The notes under the pieces: model-generated | Told to the model about the DNA's origin: nothing | What the model saw: the letters and a program-made list of their open reading frames with translations, nothing else | Database searches by the model: none | Position numbers and translations under genes: made by a program | Assembly: GCA_002773855.1 (NCBI GenBank) | Contig: PEZY01000012.1 | Coordinates: 297,613-361,612 of the forward strand | DNA from: Candidatus Buchananbacteria bacterium CG10_big_fil_rev_8_21_14_0_10_33_19 | GTDB lineage: Bacteria > Patescibacteriota > Patescibacteriia > 2-01-FULL-39-33 | Direction of reading: 5' to 3' | DNA length: 64,000 bases | In this document: in pieces, positions 4,027 through 39,776 of the stretch | Numbering within the stretch: the stretch's first letter is position 1 | How the letters are laid out: each line of letters starts with the position of its first letter

Positions 4027-4437
4027 ATGCCTGAAGAAACTAAAACTAAAAAGTATATTTACGCTAAGGGAGCTAGAAAAAGTTCTACCGCTCAGGCTAG
4101 ATTGTATGAAGGTGGTAAAGGTGGGGTAGAAGTTAATGGTTTAAAATTGAAAGAATATTTTAAAACGCAAGCTCTGCAAGATGTTTTTTTGAGTCCTCTT
4201 AAATTAACTAGTCATTTAAAAGACCTTGATGTTACTGTTAAGGTTCATAGTGGTGGTCAACAAGGTCAGGCTGATGCTTGTCGTCACGCCATATCTAGAG
4301 CTTTAATCTTATTGGATAAGGAACTTAGACCAGCCTTAAAAGCTGAAGGTTTCTTGACTCGTGATCCAAGAGTGAAAGAAAGAAAAAAACCAGGCTTGAA
4401 GGGCGCTAGAAAAGCCCCACAATGGAGCAAGCGTTAA
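4027..4437 (+). CDS. rpsI: 30S ribosomal protein S9
   Basis: C-terminal ...GLKGARKAPQWSKR. Confidence 0.95.
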   Translation: MPEETKTKKYIYAKGARKSSTAQARLYEGGKGGVEVNGLKLKEYFKTQALQDVFLSPLKLTSHLKDLDVTVKVHSGGQQGQADACRHAISRALILLDKELRPALKAEGFLTRDPRVKERKKPGLKGARKAPQWSKR

Positions 4438-21839: not shown

Positions 21840-22799
21840 TTATTGTCCACTGTGAAATTTTTTGTGAATATCTTTTAATTTTTTATTAGTAACATGCGTA
21901 TATATTTGAGTGGTGGCAATATTGCTGTGGCCTAGTAATTCTTGGACCGATCTTAGATCAGCGCCTTGATCTAATAAATCAGTGGCGTAGCTGTGTCTAA
22001 GGGTGTGAGGTGTAGCGTCTACTGGTAGACCAGCCATAACAGTATATTTTTTTACTAAATTTTCAATTGATCTAGACGATAGTCTGTGGTCATCATCGTT
22101 ATTATTGCGACTATAGTTGATAAACAGGGGAGTTAACATGTCATTTCTGGTCTTAAGGTATTTTGAAAGCCATTTTAGGGATCGATTGGAAAAATAGATA
22201 GTTCTAGTTTTGCCACCCTTACCATTAATAACTAATTCCTGGTCAGTGAACTTATTTGTAATCAGGTTATTGCGATTAAACTGCTTAACGTTAAGCGAAG
22301 TTAATTCTGAGACCCGGATGCCAGTAGAGAAGAGTACCTCTAGTATGGTTCTATCTCTTAAGCCATCAGGCTTAGATGTATTTGGCATATTTAACATTTT
22401 TTCAATTTGTTCAAAATTTAAAAATTTAATTGATTTATCTTTATCAGTTAATTTTGGTAATTTTATTTTGTCAGAGGGCAGTGAGATGATATCTTTGTCA
22501 GCTAAATAATTTAAGAGTATTCTAATGGCCCTTAAATAATAGCTTTGAGTAGTCTTTTTAATCCGTTTACCCTTATCATCCTGTTTACGTGATAAATAGA
22601 GTCGGTAGTCCCAAATATGGTCTGTAGTGAGCTCGTGGGGCTTGATATCAACTAAGTCATGATCCTTAAGCCAGTTTATAAACATTTTTAGAAAGTTATG
22701 ATAATTACGGGTTGATACTGGACTCAGGCCCTTTTCAACCTCACAATAGTCTAGGAAGTTAGGGATATGTTTAATTAGTGGAATATTAGATTTTTTCAT
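21840..22799 (-). CDS. tyrosine site-specific recombinase, XerC/XerD family
   Basis: Catalytic R (TGIRVSEL), HTLRHSYAT, and GHSNIATTQIYTHV (H..Y) motifs. Confidence 0.9.
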   Translation of the reverse strand: MKKSNIPLIKHIPNFLDYCEVEKGLSPVSTRNYHNFLKMFINWLKDHDLVDIKPHELTTDHIWDYRLYLSRKQDDKGKRIKKTTQSYYLRAIRILLNYLADKDIISLPSDKIKLPKLTDKDKSIKFLNFEQIEKMLNMPNTSKPDGLRDRTILEVLFSTGIRVSELTSLNVKQFNRNNLITNKFTDQELVINGKGGKTRTIYFSNRSLKWLSKYLKTRNDMLTPLFINYSRNNNDDDHRLSSRSIENLVKKYTVMAGLPVDATPHTLRHSYATDLLDQGADLRSVQELLGHSNIATTQIYTHVTNKKLKDIHKKFHSGQ

Positions 22800-29496: not shown

Positions 29497-31860
29497 CTAC
29501 CTTATGGTTATATTATATTCCTTTTTTAATTTATCGACAACTTTATCATGAACTTTTTGGGCTTCTGTTAGCTCTAATGTTTTATTATCATCCCGATAAT
29601 TAATTCTGATAGCCAAAGCTTTTTTGCCGGTGGGAATTTTTTCACCTTGATAAACCGATAAAAATAAAACTTGTTTTATTAAGTCATTAAAATCTTTAAC
29701 AGTATTTACAACGTCGCTGTACAAAATATCTTCTTCAATTTCCATCGAAATATCTAAATCAATCCCAGGAAATTTAGCAATTGGTTTGTAAGTTGAGCTG
29801 TCTTTAATGAATTCTGCTAACTTGGAAAAATCAATTTCAGCTAGAGCGACATTCTTTTTGATACCAAATAATTGTAAATTTTCTTTGTTTATGATACCAA
29901 TTGTTCCAATGGATTTTTCGTTGATTATAATTTCGGCTGATTCATTGCTGCTCCAGTAGAGATTAGTCTTTTTAATGGGTTGGGTGGTAAAATCTTCAAT
30001 ATTCAATTTTTGCAGGACTACTGCCAGAGCTCCTTTAACATCAAAAAACGCTTTATCTTTTGAATCCTCAGCCATGGCAATACATAAATCTGTTTTTTCA
30101 GTTGGTAGTTCTTTAGGATTATTGATGTATGATTTGCTGAGTTCAAATATTTTTAAATCACTCACCATTCTTTCATTTTCTTTAATAGATTGTAATAGGC
30201 CCGGTACCAATGAGACGCGCATATATTCAAAATCACCAGATAATGGGTTGGCTATTTTTACGTGATCATTTACATCTAAACCAGAGCTTTTAATTAATTT
30301 TTCTGAAATAAATGAATAATTAATATTTTCGCTGTAGCCTAAGCCCACTAAAGTGTCTTTGATTTTATCCTCTTGTTGAAATATTTTTTTCTGATCGTTA
30401 CCTGTTGGTAAATCGCCAGTCATTAACTTGGCTGGTAATTTATGATAACCGTAAACTCTAGCAATCTCTTCGATTAAATCATGTGGCCCCTCGATGTCAT
30501 TGTTTCTAAAATATGGCACCTCGACTTTAATGTCGCCAGTACCAGATACTTTGAAACCTAATTTTTCTAAAATAGATTTTACCTCAGCTGGTTTAATCTC
30601 TATGCCCAATATTCTTTTAATATCATCGCTTGGTAAATTAACAGTTTTAATTTTAAATGAATAACTAGACTCATCAATTAATTTTGAAGCCACTTTACCG
30701 TTAGCTAATTCAACTACCAATTCTATGGCTCTTAAAATAGCTGGTGTAGTGTTTTCTGGTGCCAAGCCCTTCTCAAATAAATTAGAGCTATCAGAATGTA
30801 AATTTAGAGCTCTGGCTGTCTTTCTAATTGATAGTTGATCAAAATTGGCTGCTTCTAAAACAATAGTCTTAGTCTCGTCGGTCGCGGCTGAAAGTTCGCC
30901 ACCCATAATACCGGCTACAGCTACAGGATCTTTTTTGTCGGCAATAACTAGCGAGTCTTCAATTAATTCATAATTTTTACCATCCAAAGCTAAAAGCTTT
31001 TCACCTTTTTTGGCACCCCTAATTATTATTTCTTGACCAGCTAATTTATTATAATCAAAAACATGCATTGGTTGGCCAAATTCTAATAAAATATAATTAG
31101 TAATATCGACTAAATTGTTAATTGGTCTAAGTCCAGCCGATAGTAATCTTTGTTGCATCCAGAGCGGTGAACTTTCAACTTTAATGTCAGTCATAACAAT
31201 CGCTTGGTAACGTGAACAGAGTTTTGATTCTTTAACACTAACATCTAATTTTAATTCTTTGTTGATTTTAAGATTTGGCTTTGATTCTTCGTAAGTAAAT
31301 TTAACATCCAAAATAGCCGAAGCTTCACGAGCTAAACCAATAATATTCATAGCGTCTGGACGATTGGAAGTGACTTCAATATCAAAAATATAATCATCTA
31401 AGTTCATCACTTTCTCTAGTGGTAGTCCAACTTTGGTGTAGGCTGGTAAAATGTAAATCCCCGTGTGATCTTCACCAATGCCTAATTCTTTTTGAGAGCA
31501 CATCATGCCAGCACTTTCGACGCCTCGTAGACTAGCCTTTTTAACTTCAAAGCCAGATACTTCCCCGCCCACTGTTACTACTGGTACTTTTTGACCGACT
31601 GCAATATTAGGAGCACCACAAACAATTTGGAGTGGTTCTTTGGCACCCACATCAACTTGGCAAACCTGTAATTTGTCAGCAGAAGCATGCTTCTCAATCG
31701 AAATGATTTCACCAATGACTACTTTTTTAAAAGTTGGTGTGAGTTCATGAATATAATCGATAGTGGGGCCACTGATAGTTAATTTTTTGGCAAAATCACG
31801 AGCACTATCTTTAGTAGTGACGTATTCTTTTAGCCAATTGTAGGAAAAATTTAGGTTCAT
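29497..31860 (-). CDS. pheT: phenylalanine--tRNA ligase beta subunit
   Basis: Start trimmed to MNLNFSYNWLKEY, the conserved PheT N-terminus; B3/4, B5 and FDX-ACB domains. Confidence 0.9.
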   Translation of the reverse strand: MNLNFSYNWLKEYVTTKDSARDFAKKLTISGPTIDYIHELTPTFKKVVIGEIISIEKHASADKLQVCQVDVGAKEPLQIVCGAPNIAVGQKVPVVTVGGEVSGFEVKKASLRGVESAGMMCSQKELGIGEDHTGIYILPAYTKVGLPLEKVMNLDDYIFDIEVTSNRPDAMNIIGLAREASAILDVKFTYEESKPNLKINKELKLDVSVKESKLCSRYQAIVMTDIKVESSPLWMQQRLLSAGLRPINNLVDITNYILLEFGQPMHVFDYNKLAGQEIIIRGAKKGEKLLALDGKNYELIEDSLVIADKKDPVAVAGIMGGELSAATDETKTIVLEAANFDQLSIRKTARALNLHSDSSNLFEKGLAPENTTPAILRAIELVVELANGKVASKLIDESSYSFKIKTVNLPSDDIKRILGIEIKPAEVKSILEKLGFKVSGTGDIKVEVPYFRNNDIEGPHDLIEEIARVYGYHKLPAKLMTGDLPTGNDQKKIFQQEDKIKDTLVGLGYSENINYSFISEKLIKSSGLDVNDHVKIANPLSGDFEYMRVSLVPGLLQSIKENERMVSDLKIFELSKSYINNPKELPTEKTDLCIAMAEDSKDKAFFDVKGALAVVLQKLNIEDFTTQPIKKTNLYWSSNESAEIIINEKSIGTIGIINKENLQLFGIKKNVALAEIDFSKLAEFIKDSSTYKPIAKFPGIDLDISMEIEEDILYSDVVNTVKDFNDLIKQVLFLSVYQGEKIPTGKKALAIRINYRDDNKTLELTEAQKVHDKVVDKLKKEYNITIR

Positions 31861-31864
31861 AAAA

Positions 31865-32965
31865 TTAAAACTGATTAATAACTCGTAAATCATTTTTGTA
31901 TAACAATCTAATATCATCGATATTCAAGCCCGATTTCATCATATAACATCTTTCTACGCCCCAACCAAAGGCAAAGCCACTATAAACCTTAGGATCAATA
32001 CCACCCGCTTTTAAGACATTAGGGTGGACCATACCGGCGCCAGCTAGTTCTAGCCAGCCTTCTTTGCAAAGCTTGCAACCCTTGCCATGACAAACACCAC
32101 AAGAGATATCTACCTCAAAACTGGGTTCGGTAAATTGAAAGTGGTGTGGTCGTAGTCTAATTTCTCTATCTTCGCCAAAAAATCTTTTAACAAAATATTC
32201 TACCGTACCCTTGAGGTGGCTTATGTTTATGTCTTTATCAATAACCAAGCCTTCAAATTGATGAAACATTGGTGAATGAGAAGCATCGATTTGACGACGA
32301 TAAGTTTTGGAAATATTAGTCATACGAATTGGCAACTCCCCTTTTTCCATTTCCCGGACTTGGCCAGATGAAGTGTGCGGGGTTAATATCCGCTGACCTA
32401 ATTTTTTATTAATTGGTTCGCGATCAATAAAAAAAGTTTCCCATTCATCACGGGCTGGATGGCCAGCTGGCATATTTAGAGCTTCAAAGCCATAATAATC
32501 CCACTCGACTTCTGGATAGCGCTCTCTTTGAAAACCAATATCTTCGAAAATACCAGATATTTCTCTGATGGCTTGCGAGACCATATGAAGATGACCAACT
32601 GGTTGTTCGGTACCAGGTAAAGTTGGGTCAAAAGCAGTGTCAGAATTATTTTTATTTCCTAAATTAGATTTAATAGTCTCTAATTTATTAGTTAAAAATT
32701 GTTTTACTTCGTTGGCTAACTTGCCGACTGCTGGCATTTCTTCTTTGGGCACACTTTTCATTTCTTTCATTAGTAGTGTTAGAACCCCACTCTTTCTGCT
32801 AAGATATTTATTTTCCAAAGATTCTAAATCAACCAAAGATTTAATTTTTTCTGCTTCATCGTTGAATTCTTTTTTTAGTGCTTCTAATTTTGCCTTCATT
32901 TTTTTGAGACTAAATAATTTAGTAATGTAGCTATTATAGTCCCAAAATTGACTTTTAGTCAACAT
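31865..32965 (-). CDS. pheS: phenylalanine--tRNA ligase alpha subunit
   Basis: Class II core with GHPARD...FEGLV motifs. Confidence 0.95.
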   Translation of the reverse strand: MLTKSQFWDYNSYITKLFSLKKMKAKLEALKKEFNDEAEKIKSLVDLESLENKYLSRKSGVLTLLMKEMKSVPKEEMPAVGKLANEVKQFLTNKLETIKSNLGNKNNSDTAFDPTLPGTEQPVGHLHMVSQAIREISGIFEDIGFQRERYPEVEWDYYGFEALNMPAGHPARDEWETFFIDREPINKKLGQRILTPHTSSGQVREMEKGELPIRMTNISKTYRRQIDASHSPMFHQFEGLVIDKDINISHLKGTVEYFVKRFFGEDREIRLRPHHFQFTEPSFEVDISCGVCHGKGCKLCKEGWLELAGAGMVHPNVLKAGGIDPKVYSGFAFGWGVERCYMMKSGLNIDDIRLLYKNDLRVINQF

Positions 32966-33004: not shown

Positions 33005-33385
33005 TTATATTCTTTTTTTATAGCTTAAAAAGAAAAATTCTAAAACCACAACAGCGGCTACTAACAGGATGGTATTTAAGATATTTAACATTTTGGCACC
33101 TTGCAAGATTAAAATACTATCTACTAATAAAGCAAAGAAAAATGATTGCCTAAAAGAGGTGCCAACAATGCTGTATTCCAAGGAAAATTTATTGAAGGCT
33201 TTTCGAAAAGCAAAACTGGCTAAAAAGAAAGTGCCAAGGAGTGAAAATAATAAAGTTAAATAAAACAAAAGAAAACCAAAAAAATCAGTTTCGAAAGGAT
33301 TAATTTGTGAAACAATAGAAATCCAAATCACCCAGAATAAAATTGTAGCACAGGAAACAACGGTTAATAATTGCTTGATGTTCAT
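33005..33385 (-). CDS. hypothetical membrane protein
   Basis: 3 TM helices; TGcTATAAT extended -10 upstream at about 33425. Confidence 0.45.
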   Translation of the reverse strand: MNIKQLLTVVSCATILFWVIWISIVSQINPFETDFFGFLLFYLTLLFSLLGTFFLASFAFRKAFNKFSLEYSIVGTSFRQSFFFALLVDSILILQGAKMLNILNTILLVAAVVVLEFFFLSYKKRI

Positions 33386-33435
33386 AAAAAAAAATAATTT
33401 TATGTTATTAATTCTATTATAGCATAATTATTTGG

Positions 33436-33469
33436 ACAAATAAAAATCCCGTCGGTAAAGACGGGATTT
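33436..33469 (-). terminator. Rho-independent terminator closing the left end of the GC-rich island
   Basis: aaatcccgtc-ggtaaa-gacgggattt, a 10-bp perfect stem, with a minus-strand T-run. Confidence 0.65.
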
Positions 33470-33803
33470 AGAGAAGGGTGAACTGGAATGTTGTGAAACT
33501 GTATTTGAGAGAGAATCTCCAAACTAAAGTTGGAGAAATGCAATTTACAACATACCAGCATGAAATCCTTCCCTCAGTGAAAAATTATAGCACCCCTAAA
33601 AAATACAATCAATCTTTTTTTTAATTTTTCTGTGGATAAAAAAAATCTCTTCCATTGCGCCGTTAAGTTTCTAAAAATACTTAGACACTTAACGGGGAAA
33701 AAGAAGAGAGATTTTCTAGTCCTAAGACTTTAACTTCCCCGGTCAAATTAATAAGTTAATTATTAATTTGATTAGGGAGAGGAAGTATCAATGACGCCTC
33801 CTC

Positions 33804-34037
33804 TCAAATGGTTTCGACTGTGATCAGTGCCGCTTCGCTTTTTCGAATGGCAATGACACTATCATAAATTTTAAGGCGCATAGGGTCACCTAGTGGAGCA
33901 AAGCCTAAAACTTCAATCCCCGCTCCCTCAATGAAGCCCATTTCTAGTAGTCGTTGAAAGACAGCAAATACTGTTTCTTTTATTTCTACGACTATACAAA
34001 ATTGGCAGGCGTGTAACTTATCTAGAGTGGTGGTCAT
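33804..34037 (-). CDS. feoA: FeoA-family protein (orphan; no feoB present)
   Basis: RLLEMGF.EGAGIEVLGFAPLGDPMRLKI....IAIRKSEAALITVE matches the FeoA SH3-like consensus. Confidence 0.7.
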   Translation of the reverse strand: MTTTLDKLHACQFCIVVEIKETVFAVFQRLLEMGFIEGAGIEVLGFAPLGDPMRLKIYDSVIAIRKSEAALITVETI

Positions 34038-34105
34038 AATATAAAACCTCTCTTAGATGATGAGCGGGCTGACAGATTGGATCTGCAGCCCGCTAAATGT
34101 TGGGG

Positions 34106-34324
34106 TTAGACAGCTTCGGGACGAAGCTGTCTCATGAAGTCGAAGCAGTCAACTGCTCTGTCCTCAAGGACATCGGAGCGATGTACTGGACAACGAGAGC
34201 ATGGCGACGTTTCGTCTTCACAGATGAGTCCGCGTTGCAGAATTTCTTCTGCGGACAGCGTCTCCAATTCTGACATGGGATGGGCATGAGGACAATCCTC
34301 ACATTCGTTATGACACATGGCCAT
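34106..34324 (-). CDS. small Cys-rich protein (CxxxCxxC..CxxC), C-terminal DCFDF motif
   Basis: ORF in the GC-rich island; its 3' end is encoded by a perfect hairpin at 34109-34131. Confidence 0.35.
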   Translation of the reverse strand: MAMCHNECEDCPHAHPMSELETLSAEEILQRGLICEDETSPCSRCPVHRSDVLEDRAVDCFDFMRQLRPEAV

Positions 34325-34385
34325 AGCATTTCTCCTTATTCGGTTGCAATTGATCTAGTCCGAGAAATTCGGGCTAGTAAAAGAG

Positions 34386-34568
34386 CTACTGGGGATATTC
34401 CATTTCAGGGAAATGGAGGTCGAAACAGTCTGGACAATAGCCATGGCTAATGTCTCTCCTACCTTCGACGGACTGCTCTGTCCATGAGCCGTCAGTTTGA
34501 CGAACCTTTTTACATACGCAACATTGAACTACCATTGATGTACCTCCATAGTTGAATTTTCCCCACAA
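34386..34568 (-). CDS. small zinc-ribbon-like protein (CCVC...CPDC), C-terminal DCFDL motif
   Basis: ORF in the GC-rich island. Confidence 0.35.
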   Translation of the reverse strand: MWGKFNYGGTSMVVQCCVCKKVRQTDGSWTEQSVEGRRDISHGYCPDCFDLHFPEMEYPQ

Positions 34569-34648
34569 CGATACGAAGCAAGTTTGAACAAAATGGTCGG
34601 TCTCTTATAATATATATTTATTTGTACCGGTTTTGTCAAGTTTGCTTG

Positions 34649-34670
34649 TTAGTAGACCTACTAGTAAATA
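34649..34670. repeat. Inverted-repeat arm L (ttagtagacctactagtaaata)
   Basis: Partner arm at 34795-34819; about 17/20 of the aligned positions match the reverse complement. Confidence 0.5.
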
Positions 34671-34794
34671 TTTTTTGTTTATAAACTTTTATAATTTTGA
34701 GATAAATTTTTCAAATAATCTTTGCGGTTTAGAGGTTCTAAATTAAAAAGATTTTTGGAAATTTAGTCGAAATTTATAAGTTTTAACAAAAAGG

Positions 34795-34819
34795 TATTTA
34801 CTAGTGGGTCTACACCTAG
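34795..34819. repeat. Inverted-repeat arm R (tatttactagtgggtctacacctag)
   Basis: Reverse complement of arm L; the 120 bp between them is AT-rich. Confidence 0.5.
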
Positions 34820-35006
34820 CATGTCCCTCCTTCGTATCGGCGTGGAGAAAATTCTCCAATCGCCAGTTCATTAGAACAACTAATAGAGGATGACTGATGA
34901 AAAATAGATTTCATAAGGCCCTATTATGGTTGTGACCCGAAACATATAATTCGTAATTTGTTCCCTCCCCTATATGATTGTTCTAAAATAAATTTAATGT
35001 ACTCTT

Positions 35007-35120
35007 CAAAACTATCCCGTCAAATTGATTTCAATTCCCTCATAATTAACATTTTCTGGAATATTCTTTTTTAACAAGATAGTTTTGAGGAGAAATCTTT
35101 ATGGTTATTATGATTTCTCC
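35007..35120 (-). ncRNA. Structured repeat element, copy A (long-range helix plus terminal GC hairpin); strand tentative
   Basis: 5' arm caaaactatc pairs with 3' arm gatagttttg; hairpin ggagaaatc/gatttctcc. Confidence 0.4.
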
Positions 35121-35289
35121 AGATTTTGCTGGCGAGTATTATTTTCAAGTGGCATCCTCTACTGGTTGAAAAATAGTAGCCCTTTTCTCTAAATACGCAG
35201 ATCAGGCCACCAACTACTCGATAAGTGTGTAAAATTTTACCGTAACGAACTTCTAATAACTCTGATTGTGACATCTCACTATCCTCCAT
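35071..35289 (-). CDS. questionable small ORF overlapping copy A of the structured element
   Basis: From the ORF track; its C-terminus is encoded by the hairpin region. Confidence 0.15.
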   Translation of the reverse strand: MEDSEMSQSELLEVRYGKILHTYRVVGGLICVFREKGYYFSTSRGCHLKIILASKIWRNHNNHKDFSSKLSC

Positions 35290-35300
35290 GGTTTTTTACC

Positions 35301-35420
35301 AGAACTATCCAGTCAATCGATTTTATTCCCTCCTTTGTATTTTTTATAAATCAAGAAATGGAACCCTCATATTGACAAGATAGTTTTGGTGAGGAGCACG
35401 AGTTCAATGTCGTGCTCCTC
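35301..35420 (-). ncRNA. Structured repeat element, copy B
   Basis: Arms agaactatccagtcaat / attgacaagatagttttgg; hairpin gaggagcacga/tcgtgctcctc. Confidence 0.4.
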
Positions 35421-35427
35421 TGTATCT

Positions 35428-35631
35428 TTACCTCCACGGTTGGTGGTAAAGACATGTTCCGTGGTGTTCGCGCATCATAAACACCACGGAAAGGTCCATT
35501 GACAATTTTCTGGCTACCTTAACAGCCCCAACAAAACTGTCAAATACATAGATAAAGTCTATGCAATCGCAGGTGTAACCAAATACTGTATACATAAATT
35601 TCTCCTCTCGTTGTTGAAATGTACTACCCAA
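35428..35631 (-). CDS. small Cys-containing ORF (likely start MYTVFGYTCDCIDF...), preceded by copy C of the structured element and a GAGGAG Shine-Dalgarno
   Basis: SD gagaggag 8 nt upstream of the internal Met; shares the GYxCDCxDF motif with ORF 34386-34568. Confidence 0.3.
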   Translation of the reverse strand: MGSTFQQREEKFMYTVFGYTCDCIDFIYVFDSFVGAVKVARKLSMDLSVVFMMREHHGTCLYHQPWR

Positions 35632-35733
35632 AACTATCTAGCCAATCCCGTAAATCCTCTAAATTGATTTAAGTAGAATCAGCAGATTAGCGAGATGGTT
35701 TTGGGAGGGGCTGGACATCACAGGTCCAGCCCC
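35629..35733 (-). ncRNA. Structured repeat element, copy C
   Basis: 21-nt arms cccaaaactatctagccaatc / gattagcgagatggttttggg; hairpin ggggctggac/gtccagcccc. Confidence 0.4.
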
Positions 35734-36736
35734 AGAAAGGTTGAGTGCGCATGGACAACACACCCAAGAATGAAGATTGTCGGATCAAAGATCCTTATCA
35801 GGGCGACGCATCTAGATAACTAGCTGCCGCCCTTATAAGGAGCTTCGAATCTTTTTAACAAGAGATTAAAAGATTCACTCCCTTAAAACAAAAGAACCCT
35901 GGTTGGAGAGAGAGGGTTCCTTTGCGGTGACCACTATAATAAATATACTGGTGGTTTTTTCTCTCTCCTTATTGTGCTAGCATTATATCATATAACAGTA
36001 ATCTTGTCAAGTATATTGCTGGTTTTTTGCTAAAAATTAGCTAAAATTAGCTAATATTATAAACTTGTCAATATGATAAAATTGTGATGTAATATAGTTT
36101 TATGAAATTTAGTTACTTAGTATTTCTTATATTCGTTATTCAATGAGTTATATATCTTATCTCTTTCTATCTGTTACTTTTGTACCGCCAAAAGTAACCA
36201 AAAGCTCGCAAACGTAAAAAATCATGGCAATTTTATATCAGCTCGCTAGAGCCAATTAAACAAAACAGCGACCTAATAATTGTCTCTAACGCTCGCCTTG
36301 ATATAAAATTGACACAATATTTTTTAATGTTTGCATTTTTTATAATAAATATATAAATAAATTCGAGCATATGAAAAATTAAGTAGAAAAACAATAATAA
36401 ATTAAGCGTTTGTGAGTTGTCTACGAACAAATTTTTCGCATGTCTGAGCCATTTTCGACCTATCTAAATAAATAGAAAATGGTGAGTTCGGAAAATAGCG
36501 AAGATTTATTATAGTTTTTCCTTAATTTTATCATCGCTCGTAGTTTTTGTGTTACTTTTTGCTATCAAAAAGTGACGAGAAAAGTTATTAAAAAATGAGA
36601 TTGCTTCTTACCTCGCAATGACGTTTGTAGATGGAGTGTAAAGTAATAGAAATAAAGAAAATAATCTCTCTACCTCCCCCACCCGTATAGTTGCGGTCGA
36701 TATGACATGATAAAATAAAATAAAATTATAGATAAA

Positions 36737-36765
36737 AAAGACTAGTCATATGACTAGTCTTTTAA
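36737..36765. terminator. Perfect palindromic hairpin; bidirectional terminator downstream of the helicase-nuclease gene
   Basis: aaaagactagtcatatgactagtctttt. Confidence 0.65.
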
Positions 36766-36773
36766 AAGCATAA

Positions 36774-39700
36774 TTACGCTTTATGTTCACAAATACTGTT
36801 AAAGTCACAATAATTACACATCATCCCTGGTTTTGGCGGAAATTCCGCTTGTTTAATACCCTCTATATTTTTTATTAACTTGGCTTTGGTTTTTTCTAGT
36901 TCTTTGGGCGTACCCAGGAAAGAAACTTCTTTATTGTCATCTAAATAATGAAAAACCAATTCTTTGACGGGTTCTTTTAATACCTCTTCTACGGCCATTT
37001 GATAGATTAATAGTTGTTCTTTGTTATCAAAAGTTAATTTATCTTTAGCACTGCCGGTTTTATAGTCTACAATTCTGACTCCCCCATCTACTTTGTCTAT
37101 CCTATCGATCACACCATAAAGAGTAAAATTTTCTAAACCATTTTGAATATGTAAATTAAATGGATATTCTAAATACATAGTTTTGGGCCAATTGTCTTTA
37201 TTTTGTTCATAAAACTGTTTTAGAGATTTTTCACCTTTGATCCGGTATTTTTCTTTGGTGTCTCTGTCTGGAAACCAATCATCAATAAAAGATTCTTTAT
37301 AAATTTTGGCCATATCCTCCCAGTCGACATCTTTTTTGTCATGACTAGGTATTAATTCTAATTGACTAGGATTAATTCTTTTACTAACTAGTTCTAAAGT
37401 TTTTTGTAGACTGTTATGCATAGTGCGACCAAAAGAAAACTGTGGTTTACCTGGAGTCGGCACTTTTAAAATAAATGAAAACCGATACTGATAAGGACAA
37501 GTTTCAAAAGCTTTTAGTCGAGTAAAAGAAAATTTAGCTGGGAGCTTTGGCTTGATTTCTTCTTGGTAGTTTTTATTTTTAATGTCTTCTGATTCAATTG
37601 AGGTTTTAACCGTTTCCGATAAGGTTAAACCAATTGGTTTAAGTTCTTGGATAAATCTAGATATTTTTTTGGCTCTAGCCCCACCATAGTTCTCAGCCGA
37701 TGAAAAATATAAATTACTTTTGGCTCTAGTCATCGCCACATAAAATAGGCGTCGCTCTTCCTGAAGATGAATATCGCACTCTGGCACAATCTCTTTAATT
37801 AATTTGTCTGGCAAGCTAATGGCTTCGCCTTTGGCGGTAGTGGGAAATCTTTTGTCTACCATATTAGGTAAAAAGACGCATTCAAATTCCAAACCCTTGC
37901 TGGCATGAACGGTCATAATTTTTACCGTGTCAGGATCATCAGATTCGGTAGTTGATTTTAAGCTACCCTCTTCACCAGACTCTAATTCTAATTCTATTAA
38001 GTTCAAAAAACTTTTTACTGATTTATCACTGCTTTCTTTTTCAAAGTCTTGAATTTTTTTGAAGAATTGATTTAAATAGGCTAACTCCTCTAGATTTTTA
38101 GTAGAGTCTATAGTAGTTAAAGATTTAAGATAGCCAGATTTATCCATAAAGCCCTGAATGATTTCGGTAGTGCGTTTACCACTGGCGGCTATTTCTGAAA
38201 AATGATTGATTAATTTCATAATACTGGTAACTTTTTGTTGAGTGTCACCACTTATAACTTTTAATTCACCAGCTTGGCGTAGAGATTCATAAAGTGATAC
38301 ACCTTTGCGTCCGGCCCAATAGTTAAAATTCATTATTTCTTTGTGTGGTATATTCCAAAGTGGCATCGAAATAAAGCGGTACATAGCGACACTTTCGTGA
38401 TAACTATCTAGGAGTTTTAGGAAAGCTAGAATATTTAAAATAATATTTTTGGCATAAAGTCCTTTGGAAGCTAAGAAGTTATAAGGCACTTTGGCTTGCT
38501 CTAGGGCGTAGATAAATTCATTAGCACTAGAATTAGCTCTAATTAGAATAGCAAAATCAGACCATTTTAGATTTTCATTTTTATTATAAATATCAATTAT
38601 TTTATCAACTACCAATTTCACTTCGTCTTCTAAATTTTGACCATGAAGATGTTCTATTACTCCCTTTTGAGAATTATTAGCTAAAAGTTTTTTGGATAAT
38701 TTATTCTTTTTTTGATTGCCTTCGGCTAATTTTATCTCTAGACGGTATGGATTATTTAATTGAATGAATTGATAAGTTAAATCCAAAATATTTTGAGCGC
38801 TACGATAGTTGGTATTTAAAAATACTTCTTTAGCACTAGTATAGTCACTTTTAAATTGTAAGATGTTAGAGATAGAAGCACCCCGAAATTTATAAATCGC
38901 CTGATCGTCATCACCGACTACCGTGACATTGTTTTTGGGACTAGCCAGTAATTTAATTAATTCGTATTGAGCATAATTAGTATCTTGAAATTCATCAACT
39001 AAAATATATTTAAATTTAGCTCGATATTTAGCTAAAACATTTTTACGCTCGATAAAGAGTTTAAGTAAATAACTAATTAAATCGCCAAAATCCAAAGCAT
39101 TATTATCTAGTAGTAGTTGCTGATAGGTTTTGTAAGCTTTAGCTGTTTCTTCTAATTTTTTTAGTTCTTGGGCAATGGCTTGGTTTAATTCCTCGGCTTC
39201 TAATTCCTCCATAGCTTCTGGTTCCAGTAATTCGGCTGCTAATTTTATTTGGTCGTTGATAGTTAAAACGCTATCAACATATTTTTGATAATCTTCTGAA
39301 GTAATATTTTCGTCTTTGGCTCGAGAAAAATGTCTGAGTAAGTTATGAATGTATTTAGTAGGATTGCCTAATGGTTTGTAATAATCAATATCAAATTTAG
39401 ATAAATTGTTTTTTAACAGCATCCACTGACCAGTAGTTGAGAGTAATTTAAAATCAGTTGGCAAGCCAATTTCTAAACCATTTTCTTTTAAAATTCTTTC
39501 AGCAAAAGAATGGAAAGTAGAAATCCATAAATCAACATAACCATAGGGTAGTAGTTTATCAACTCGTTCTTCCATTTCACCAGCGGCCCTGTCAGTAAAA
39601 GTGAGGGCTAGTATTTCCTCTGGCTGACATTTGCCTTGTTCAATTAAATAAGCAATGCGACTGGTAATCACTGTAGTTTTACCGGTACCAGCTCCAGCTA

Positions 39701-39776
39701 CGATTAAAAGTGGCCCTTTATCATGGGTTACGGCCGCTACTTGTTGGTCATTTAAATTTTTAAGTAAATCTGACAT
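36774..39776 (-). CDS. UvrD/PcrA-family ATP-dependent DNA helicase fused to a C-terminal PD-(D/E)XK nuclease domain with a 4-Cys cluster (AddA/Cas4-like)
   Basis: Walker A GAGTGKT; helicase motifs; C-terminal ...FETCPYQYRF...MMCNYCDFNSICEH. Confidence 0.8.
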   Translation of the reverse strand: MSDLLKNLNDQQVAAVTHDKGPLLIVAGAGTGKTTVITSRIAYLIEQGKCQPEEILALTFTDRAAGEMEERVDKLLPYGYVDLWISTFHSFAERILKENGLEIGLPTDFKLLSTTGQWMLLKNNLSKFDIDYYKPLGNPTKYIHNLLRHFSRAKDENITSEDYQKYVDSVLTINDQIKLAAELLEPEAMEELEAEELNQAIAQELKKLEETAKAYKTYQQLLLDNNALDFGDLISYLLKLFIERKNVLAKYRAKFKYILVDEFQDTNYAQYELIKLLASPKNNVTVVGDDDQAIYKFRGASISNILQFKSDYTSAKEVFLNTNYRSAQNILDLTYQFIQLNNPYRLEIKLAEGNQKKNKLSKKLLANNSQKGVIEHLHGQNLEDEVKLVVDKIIDIYNKNENLKWSDFAILIRANSSANEFIYALEQAKVPYNFLASKGLYAKNIILNILAFLKLLDSYHESVAMYRFISMPLWNIPHKEIMNFNYWAGRKGVSLYESLRQAGELKVISGDTQQKVTSIMKLINHFSEIAASGKRTTEIIQGFMDKSGYLKSLTTIDSTKNLEELAYLNQFFKKIQDFEKESSDKSVKSFLNLIELELESGEEGSLKSTTESDDPDTVKIMTVHASKGLEFECVFLPNMVDKRFPTTAKGEAISLPDKLIKEIVPECDIHLQEERRLFYVAMTRAKSNLYFSSAENYGGARAKKISRFIQELKPIGLTLSETVKTSIESEDIKNKNYQEEIKPKLPAKFSFTRLKAFETCPYQYRFSFILKVPTPGKPQFSFGRTMHNSLQKTLELVSKRINPSQLELIPSHDKKDVDWEDMAKIYKESFIDDWFPDRDTKEKYRIKGEKSLKQFYEQNKDNWPKTMYLEYPFNLHIQNGLENFTLYGVIDRIDKVDGGVRIVDYKTGSAKDKLTFDNKEQLLIYQMAVEEVLKEPVKELVFHYLDDNKEVSFLGTPKELEKTKAKLIKNIEGIKQAEFPPKPGMMCNYCDFNSICEHKA

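Follow-up and report, generated by a model that had tools for sequence, protein, structure and literature searches.

Within a 64,000-nucleotide (nt) stretch of the genome of Candidatus Buchananbacteria bacterium CG10_big_fil_rev_8_21_14_0_10_33_19 (contig PEZY01000012.1, positions 297,613 to 361,612; we call this whole stretch the window and number it from its first letter), we found a minus-strand operon of three small genes, ORF3 (49 amino acids, aa), ORF2 (72 aa) and a feoA-like gene (77 aa). Ahead of the operon lies ~1.4 kb that is mostly conserved RNA structure, with at least six covarying domains in series. We tentatively interpret the locus as a small regulatory module, linked to metals or redox and controlled by RNA, and not as an iron transporter, a reading that we favor while holding it with somewhat less than even confidence. 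The interest of the locus lies in its combination of a zinc ribbon of the sensor-output type, uncharacterized though widespread, with a Cys4 protein restricted to the clade and a FeoA that can be dispensed with, all behind new structured RNA elements. The original prediction for this DNA, which described an orphan feoA beside a family of small Cys-rich open reading frames (ORFs), was incomplete, containing neither the conserved RNA structures nor a conserved 45-aa ORF (ORF5) among them.

The operon was compared across eight syntenic lineages, the window included; the other seven are designated L006, L008, L021, L027, L044, L048 and L072. Relatives were found through first protein searches (two and three clusters), a scan of metagenomes with a DNA pattern and a GTDB protein scan. 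The metagenome scan, which covered 241 million records, returned 36 matches, 28 of them unrelated sequences and 8 of them true loci. Five more contigs encoding an identical FeoA, of which JGI metagenomes supplied four and a Logan assembly the fifth, proved to be the same strain, 100% identical over the region covered, and carried no comparative signal. The operon is conserved in a small patescibacterial clade, the named part of which consists of Candidatus Buchananbacteria, the nearest named relatives of the locus being the metagenome-assembled genomes L048 (MHIM01000031) and L072 (JAUSEE010000035). Its site is constant, between a gene for a PcrA/UvrD-type helicase with a nuclease domain and a membrane-protein gene followed by pheST.

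Along the minus strand the genes are read in the order ORF3 (34386-34535), ORF2 (34106-34324) and feoA-like gene (33804-34037). Each has a Shine-Dalgarno sequence, the gaps measure 61-68 nt and no terminator lies in between, so that the three form one operon; a long hairpin followed by U8 (33638-33715, minus strand; the inverted repeat I1, with 38-nt arms and a T-run) is its likely terminator and is kept in L006, L008, L021 and L048. The start of ORF3 is most likely the ATG at 34535, which has a GGAGG 8 nt before it and agrees with the gene callers, and not the TTG at 34568. Gene content varied around a constant first member. ORF3 was present in 8/8 syntenic lineages, and either ORF2 or FeoA was sometimes missing: all three genes occur in the window, L006, L008 and L072, ORF3 and ORF2 without FeoA in L048, L021 and L027, and ORF3 and FeoA without ORF2 in L044. 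FeoA is therefore dispensable, having been lost in three sister lineages.

Nei-Gojobori counts on the window, L006 and L008 gave a ratio of nonsynonymous to synonymous substitution rates (dN/dS) of 0.13-0.25, or a proportion of nonsynonymous differences (pN) far below that of synonymous differences (pS), for FeoA, ORF2, ORF3 and ORF5. Because of this substitution pattern we regard all four as real genes under purifying selection, and the same pattern rules out ORF2, ORF3 and ORF5 as non-coding. Against L006, dN/dS was 0.125 for the feoA-like gene and 0.18 for ORF2; it was 0.14-0.25 for ORF5, and for ORF3 pN was 0.28-0.35 versus a pS of 0.74-0.90 (window, L006, L008). The original prediction had allowed that some of its Cys-rich ORFs might be non-coding and had proposed a Ka/Ks analysis; that analysis yielded a coding signature for ORF2 and ORF3, and the reservation falls for these two. 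The G+C content at third codon positions (GC3) of ORF2 and ORF3 was 0.46-0.62 in all lineages (window and the L008, L048 and L072 orthologues), with flanking genes at 0.25-0.30 in the window and 0.31-0.44 in L008, L048 and L072. The ORF3-ORF2 mRNA (34106-34535) is also unusually structured (folding z=-6.1), and the coding sequence of both genes may be under RNA-structure constraint. None of the readings proposed here accounts for the high GC3.

The third gene had been identified as FeoA in the original prediction, and this was borne out by a full-length match of its SH3-like domain to Pfam PF04023 (FeoA; E=5.1e-17, 62.1 bits versus a cut-off of 23, profile positions 2-73 of 74) and by matches to FeoA chains in the PDB (E=3.5e-8 to 1e-3). 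Like the FeoA of Feo systems (e.g. 2k5f, 6e55), the protein is small and free-standing, has a typical length, matches the SH3-like profile in full and carries the conserved GxxxxV...PLGDP...R core. Unlike that FeoA, it has neither FeoB nor FeoC within 64 kb, stands third behind two Cys4 mini-proteins, has been lost in sister lineages and scores below the NCBIfam equivalog cut-off (NF007106, E. coli-type FeoA; 39.3 bits versus 102). The predicted lack of feoB in the window was likewise confirmed: none of the 15 window ORFs of at least 417 aa was FeoB by Pfam scan or precomputed annotation, and FeoB was absent within 30 kb on either side of the feoA-like gene. The gene is an orphan within the 64-kb window, not necessarily within the genome.

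These observations bear on the possibility of a split Feo system, whose FeoB would be encoded at another place in the genome and in which ORF2 and ORF3 would be lineage-specific FeoC-like accessories that sense iron or oxygen through Cys-bound metal or Fe-S. Some FeoC proteins hold Fe-S clusters in Cys clusters like those of ORF2, which counts in favor of such an arrangement. The full-length FeoA domain, close to that of solved FeoA proteins, the apparent co-transcription of the three genes and the known role of FeoA as a soluble SH3-like partner stabilizing GTP-bound FeoB (PMC8980893) also speak for it. We nonetheless consider a split system rather unlikely, given the 30 kb without FeoB on each side, the score of 39 bits against an equivalog cut-off of 102, three lineages that keep ORF3 and ORF2 without FeoA and one that keeps ORF3 and FeoA without ORF2, and 78 outside ORF3-like loci with no Feo neighbor. 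A FeoA homolog that is linked in an operon to non-Feo proteins and has been lost independently bears on the roles of FeoA-like SH3 domains apart from FeoB.

Evidence for a regulatory module comes from ORF3, whose sequence (CCVCKK...W...SHGYCPDC) predicts a Cys4 zinc ribbon. A profile built from ORF3 and two relatives retrieved 2,656 cluster representatives at E<=1e-3 (hmmsearch), mostly of 50-75 aa, and 207 matches in GTDB species genomes from Hydrogenedentota, Desulfobulbaceae, Planctomycetota, Verrucomicrobiota, Gemmatimonadota and the Candidate Phyla Radiation. We fetched 80 ORF3-like loci (tblastn E of 1e-7 to 1e-11). The module was stand-alone at 35/80, and the other copies sat at the C-terminus of larger proteins; all five larger proteins that we checked begin with REC, PAS, GAF+PAS or dCache domains by Pfam, and in these five no Pfam model covered the zinc-ribbon module itself. 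The commonest neighbor was a histidine-kinase-like gene (29 loci), with the module C-terminal in a larger protein in 24/29. No Feo neighbor was present at the 78 ORF3-like loci from other phyla and from other Patescibacteria.

Alignment A3, comprising 46 stand-alone members of the module, showed C5, C6, C8, H31, C34 and C37 to be invariant and W18, S30, Y33 and P35 to be at least 90% conserved, all of which ORF3 possesses; the same C-x2-C, W, S-H-G and C-P-x-C motif is visible in the five sensor-fused proteins. ORF3 had no match in Pfam, NCBIfam, PHROGs or PDB sequences. Its AlphaFold2 (AF2) model, built without metal, is a beta-hairpin zinc ribbon plus a helix with a predicted local distance difference test (pLDDT) score of 87. 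By its sequence, ORF3 is best described as the stand-alone form of a widespread, uncurated, sensor-linked zinc-ribbon module (CxxCKK[IV]R...W...SHGxCPxC; Hydrogenedentota, Desulfobulbaceae, Gemmatimonadota, Verrucomicrobiota and others): it has every invariant residue, and it differs from the sensor-linked copies in being free-standing, a form taken by roughly half the members. An arrangement with ORF2 and/or FeoA behind the module and hairpin RNA ahead of it is peculiar to this Patescibacteria clade. The L044 ortholog of ORF3 has an Asp in place of the SHG His (SDTYCP), and L044 is the sole lineage in which FeoA directly follows ORF3 with no ORF2. The module spans thousands of clusters and forms the sole C-terminal output of many REC, PAS, GAF and Cache sensors with no curated family, and the free 49-aa ORF3, in a minimal genome and with one or two conserved partners, offers a simple system for finding its binding target.

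ORF2 encodes an acidic protein with CxxC knuckles at C8/C11 and C42/C45. In alignment A4 (seven lineages) both knuckles were invariant and the C-terminal helix motif was conserved as D-x-[VF]-[DE]-F-M; ORF2 of the window type carries a ~25-residue insertion between the knuckles. The N-terminal CxxxCxxC noted in the original prediction is present, with its first Cys (C4) missing in 4/7 lineages. The perfect hairpin noted there was also confirmed from the sequence: a 10-bp stem with a 3-nt loop (34109-34131, minus strand) encodes the last ~8 codons of ORF2 (RQLRPEAV). It is identical in L006 and absent from L008, L021, L072 and L048, and because ORF2 ends earlier in those four lineages, we regard the hairpin-encoded tail as lineage-specific. 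ORF2 is restricted to the clade (7 clusters among 5.8e9 proteins), with no match in Pfam, NCBIfam, PDB or PHROGs and no occurrence in IMG/VR. Both ORF2 and ORF3 resemble structural Zn(Cys)4 sites (zinc ribbons, rubredoxin, the C-terminal domain of Fur/PerR/Zur) in having two CxxC pairs ~25-30 residues apart, and the ORF3 model shows beta-hairpin knuckles; unlike in those sites, there was no significant sequence or fold match (best E=1.4, from the ORF3 fold search).

The Cys pairs also raise the possibility of a redox or electron-transfer mini-operon, which would pair a rubredoxin-like Fe(Cys)4 protein (ORF3) with a small Fe-S protein (ORF2), FeoA being the supplier or sensor of Fe2+. Consistent with this, each of the two carries a pair of CxxC knuckles, CPxC being the form typical of rubredoxin, window ORF2 carries C-x3-C-x2-C and an ORF2 ortholog matched a radical-SAM Cys motif weakly (E=0.047). 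Yet the C4 of that cluster is not conserved, neither protein matched a rubredoxin, ferredoxin or radical-SAM family in Pfam or NCBIfam, no oxidoreductase partner lies nearby, and the fusion of the ORF3 module to REC, PAS, GAF and Cache domains beside histidine kinases is a signaling context. Such an operon therefore appears improbable to us, and the redox role raised in the original prediction loses ground, since the sensor-fused relatives of ORF3 point to signaling output more than to redox chemistry. The same prediction's metal-handling or redox mini-operon stands insofar as ORF2 and ORF3 are co-oriented and tightly spaced with feoA and carry CxxC knuckles; it does not extend to its third Cys-rich ORF, ORF4, which belongs to a separate upstream unit.

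ORF4 (35428-35595, minus strand; earlier called as 35428-35631) comprises 55 aa from its most likely start, an ATG at 35595 with a good GGAG ribosome-binding site before it, and had been joined to ORF2 and ORF3 in a family sharing a C-terminal DCFDF-like motif. The strings VDCFDFM, CPDCFDLHF and CDCIDFIYVF are indeed present in the three ORFs, with the motif of ORF4 lying at its N-terminal and not its C-terminal end. A family of three could not be upheld: no homology was detectable, with ORF2 and ORF3 matching over 15 residues (BLASTP E=0.017; hhalign probability 0.5%) and ORF4 matching either over 6-8 residues only, and the motif is not kept in orthologs. After the second knuckle, ORF3 orthologs read CPVCLEE, CPKCYAQ, CPPCAEE or CPSCAEK, with DCFD not retained, and the motif Cys of ORF2 is Thr in L048. 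Of the 15 nt beneath the motif, ORF2 and ORF3 have 13 in common, in frame. Origin of the motif from a repeated DNA element read in differing frames was discounted too, as every one of the ORFs carries the motif in frame and outside any repeat family; the DCFDF resemblance is a coincidence. The description of these small proteins as lacking close described relatives held in that ORF2 and ORF3 belong to no curated family, but not in that ORF3 has 2,656 relatives. HMMER/HHpred searches and AlphaFold modeling of metal geometry had also been proposed; the former, run as family scans, placed FeoA only and gave no family for ORF2, ORF3 or ORF4, and the latter returned a zinc-ribbon-like model for ORF3 and none of use for ORF2.

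Transcription toward the operon may begin at a promoter, P1 (35982-36010, minus strand), with TTGACA, a 17-nt spacer and an extended -10 of TG-n-TATAAT (12/12 in a consensus scan). P1 is kept in the alignment of the window, L006 and L008; with promoter and leader together as the BLAST query, matches extend into the promoter in L021, L030 and L048 and begin at query base 22 in L072. It is followed by a structured leader (35780-35976, minus strand) that consists of a 5' GGAGAGAGA, a covarying hairpin, a terminator (35885-35925) and a long hairpin (35785-35882). The leader folds with z=-6.0, and 12/50 consensus pairs are compensatory (7 lineages). The GGAGAGAGA segment is invariant, and the terminator loop CUCUCUCUCC is complementary to the 5' purine run. 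The leader thus resembles attenuators and riboswitches with a terminator platform in starting at a consensus promoter, in placing a covarying hairpin before an intrinsic terminator and in the complementarity of an invariant 5' segment to the terminator loop. It differs from them in matching none of 4,227 Rfam families even at E<=10, and the alternative pairing is one that we infer.

Downstream of the leader we found three paralogous types of ~90-nt hairpin, A to C (folding z=-4.2 to -4.5; two or three per locus), built on common 17-bp stems (CAAAACYAUCUYGYYAA / UUGRCNRGAUAGUUUUG) with a GAGGGRAUU loop motif, each type having a conserved loop of its own. Hairpin A (35621-35710, minus strand; covariance model 39 bits) occurs in the window, L006, L030 and L048, the last with two copies. 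Hairpin B (35292-35395, minus strand; covariance model 46.5 bits) was aligned in 5 lineages with 37 pairs, 5 of them compensatory, and its apical mini-hairpin covaries fully. Hairpin C (34999-35094, minus strand) is the universal type, scoring 109.7 bits on the gene strand versus 28 bits on the other; across 8 lineages it has 25 pairs, 4 compensatory, with invariant U-G pairs and a folding z=-4.4. Next comes an extended hairpin of ~120 nt, 'postC' (34860-34996, minus strand; RNAalifold on 7 lineages: 47 pairs, 10 compensatory), which is 70-83% identical across lineages.

The last conserved element is a long-range helix whose 5' arm (34826-34857, minus strand) can alternatively form a local GGAGAA/UUCUCC hairpin with its first half, and whose 3' arm (34554-34582, minus strand) lies in the 5' untranslated region, just before the ORF3 ribosome-binding site. 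When the arms were folded jointly through an artificial A4 linker, the consensus had 26 pairs, ~23 of them arm-to-arm, conserved in 6 lineages with 2 compensatory. Enclosed by the arms is a putative internal promoter, P2 (34611-34639, minus strand), with TTGACA, a 17-nt spacer and TATATA (TAcATT or TAAATT in relatives), which is conserved in alignments. A phase-variable inversion of the promoter segment between 25-nt arms found no support: five same-strain contigs are 100% identical with none inverted, and the arms covary like an RNA helix. Also between the arms lies a 162-nt near-palindromic insertion (34652-34813) with 33-nt terminal inverted repeats, single-copy in the window, shared with L006 and absent from L008, L021, L027 and L072. 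L072 has an insertion of its own (~165 nt, 4132-4300) within the hairpin B loop, with inverted ends GTAGGTCTGTTACCAAATAT / ATATTTGGCGACAGACCTAAG; their resemblance to the ends of the window palindrome (GTAGACC...) suggests a family of small mobile palindromic elements in the clade.

Evidence on the folded strand came from 17 distinct hairpin stems, which hold 31 G-U versus 6 A-C pairs on the gene strand, and from covariance-model scores, which were higher on the gene strand than on the opposite one. Together these favor one folded strand, most simply a minus-strand RNA, and are also compatible with a folded single DNA strand. Conservation was high: the window and L008 share 84-91% identity over the non-coding elements (78% for hairpin B), and for hairpin C identity is still 88-91% in the most distant lineages, where synonymous sites of flanking genes are near saturation (pS 0.76-0.88). 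The three hairpins of the window have no copy elsewhere in the 64 kb and were not found in IMG/VR, and every hairpin locus on a long enough contig has ORF3 alongside. Rfam (4,227 families) returned only two tRNAs in the window at gathering thresholds, and in 33300-36800 at E<=10 only chance matches to microRNA-type hairpins, far below threshold. At least six covarying domains with no Rfam match, conserved beyond synonymous sites, point to new RNA families. Hairpins as a dispersed repeat (repetitive extragenic palindromic sequence or miniature inverted-repeat transposable element) were rejected because they occur at this locus only, and a phage or mobile origin because IMG/VR contained neither the hairpin pattern nor ORF2.

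The ~1.4 kb RNA might instead be functional in itself, as part of an RNA-protein particle in which ORF3, the FeoA-like SH3 barrel, ORF2 and ORF5 would bind its stems and the GAGGGRAUU loop motif. The covarying domains in series, stems conserved in sequence as well as in pairing, the restriction of the hairpins to the neighborhood of this operon, the basic CKKVR knuckle of ORF3 and the structured ORF3-ORF2 mRNA (z=-6.1, with GC3 of 0.46-0.62 versus 0.25-0.30 in the genome) are all in keeping with a particle. On the other hand, relatives of ORF3 in other phyla have no such hairpins, and the inter-hairpin segments vary and include real or possible coding ORFs, which makes the transcript an mRNA at least in part. 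We regard such a particle as doubtful, and we would be equally surprised by its broader form, a clade-specific RNA-protein system with the multi-domain RNA as scaffold and sensor for mini-proteins and the inter-hairpin slots as a nursery or exchange site for micro-proteins. Were such a system real, RNA binding would be the function of the zinc-ribbon output module wherever this widespread domain occurs. Phage T7 RNase III intercistronic hairpins and the large noncoding RNAs OLE, GOLLD and ROOL likewise place several long conserved hairpins serially in one transcription unit by small genes, as here; unlike them, the present elements have no sequence or covariance-model match, and their unit holds real coding ORFs.

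Returning to a regulatory module under RNA control, we propose that ORF3 would be its constant core, a small effector whose zinc ribbon would bind either a partner or a nucleic acid; we read it as a regulatory effector because, in other phyla, the module alone forms the C-terminal output of receiver, PAS/GAF and Cache sensors. The accessory subunits would be ORF2 and the FeoA-like protein, acting as exchangeable parts that couple the effector to metal or redox state, a role suggested by the four invariant Cys of ORF2 and by the Fe2+-system ancestry of FeoA (PMC8980893), and the trio would not constitute an Fe2+ importer. Expression might be controlled first by termination or read-through at the leader, through the alternative pairing of the 5' run and the terminator loop, and second by pairing of the helix arms in read-through transcripts, beside the ORF3 ribosome-binding site.

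Several points weigh against this interpretation. As regards the proteins, ORF2 and ORF3 have no characterized homolog, and the evidence for their metal binding, which is plausible, consists of the CxxC pairs. The module has no Pfam or NCBIfam model and no description in the papers searched, in which its motif strings did not occur either. A Foldseek search of the PDB with the ORF3 model gave nothing significant (best E=1.4); the top non-significant matches were Fur, PerR and Zur chains, the first two over 55-57 columns that include the Zn(Cys)4 region. The AF2 model of ORF2 is poor and unreliable (pLDDT 55). In other phyla, the neighbors of stand-alone ORF3-like genes show nothing but lineage-specific synteny (ABC/Gld genes, mur genes, histidine kinases) and give no shared clue to a role, and the close likeness of the third protein to true FeoA leaves room for a FeoB elsewhere in the genome. 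As regards control, the covariation counts come from 5-8 lineages, transcripts from P1 may not reach ORF3, and P2 is only consensus-like, failing the consensus scan here with A as its last -10 base.

The segments between hairpins are bounded exactly by the hairpin bases and differ in content by lineage, but every hairpin type stays in its place and does not move along with an ORF. Slot A-B holds ORF4 in the window and only a 45-nt hairpin in L006. By its sequence ORF4 is a strain-specific candidate micro-ORF of the upstream variable unit: it is followed by a hairpin (35391-35420) and lies in a ~250-nt segment absent from L006 and L008, with homologs in same-strain contigs only. Slot B-C holds ORF5 in three lineages, nothing in L021 and an unrelated 59-aa ORF in L072. 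ORF5 (35071-35274, minus strand) is a conserved small gene of 45 aa in relatives; relative to L006 and L008 the window copy has an 8-nt deletion that replaces the last five codons with a 27-residue tail running into hairpin C. All same-strain contigs covering the segment share this deletion, so it is not an assembly error. The slots of L048 (3479-4441) hold four other small ORFs, among them a 50-aa Cys-rich CPFC...C..C protein and one with a sub-threshold ankyrin-repeat match (E=9e-4); apart from this match, ORF4, ORF5 and the cassette ORFs of relatives had none in Pfam, NCBIfam, PHROGs or PDB sequences. Slots of lineage-specific micro-ORFs between fixed hairpins may represent a natural case of small-gene turnover.

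Such an arrangement recalls integron attC arrays, in which imperfect ~60-100-nt hairpins bound small, variable, same-orientation ORFs behind a strong promoter. We therefore considered a cassette platform, with the hairpins as attC-like recombination sites or mobile-element remnants and the micro-ORFs exchangeable and expressed from P1. In its favor, hairpin bases mark the exact limits of the variable segments, whose contents vary with the lineage, a strong promoter stands at one end, and the outer stem reads ..AAC/GTT.. as in attC. We nevertheless give this platform very little credence. The outer stem (CCAAAAC/GTTTTGG) agrees with the RYYYAAC/GTTRRRY box at 4/7 positions only; each hairpin is fixed while the ORFs change, and the loops are conserved per type where attC has its variable part; no copies exist elsewhere in the window or in viral contigs; and the excess of G-U over A-C on the gene strand favors one folded strand, with attC-type single-stranded DNA still compatible. 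No integron integrase accompanies the hairpins: scans of the window found a single recombinase, a XerC/XerD-type tyrosine recombinase (21840-22799, minus strand; XerD model 232 bits, below the equivalog cut-off), 11 kb away. An integron or attC array proper was rejected, as the integron-integrase model scored 100 bits versus a cut-off of 265, the attC box consensus was not matched and the hairpins are fixed. A TIGR-Tas array, with tandem 36-nt units, 8-12-nt edge and loop repeats and 9-nt spacers beside a Nop-domain Tas protein (PMC12045711), was also rejected, the units here being ~90-nt hairpins ~300 nt apart; no Nop domain was matched among the window ORFs scanned or annotated, several ORFs <200 aa having been left out.

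The locus occupies 3.4 kb without a long ORF (33386-36773) in a genome of 32.5% G+C, and so little coding sequence over such a length is rare in streamlined Patescibacteria genomes. The flanking genes and all elements of interest lie on the minus strand. Upstream is the PcrA/UvrD-type helicase with its PD-(D/E)XK nuclease domain (36774-39776, minus strand; 1000 aa), and downstream, also on the minus strand, are the gene for a 126-aa membrane protein and then pheS and pheT. The sole perfect DnaA box of the window, TTATCCACA (33631-33639, minus strand), stands just upstream of a conserved promoter (33584-33612, minus strand; TTGATT, 17 nt, TG-c-TATAAT). A replication origin was rejected here, there being a single perfect box, no cluster, and genes in the same direction on both sides. 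The promoter is followed by a ~135-nt non-coding unit (region 33438-33639) that ends in a terminator (33438-33469). With a folding z=-7.5, 90% identity to its counterparts in L008 and L021 and nothing similar in Rfam, this unit probably represents a small RNA or else the leader of the membrane-protein and pheST genes. The longest pheT ORF (29497-31917) overlaps the end of pheS (31865-32965) by 53 nt, and on sister contigs the gene callers' choice of pheT start gives 806 aa or 787 aa.

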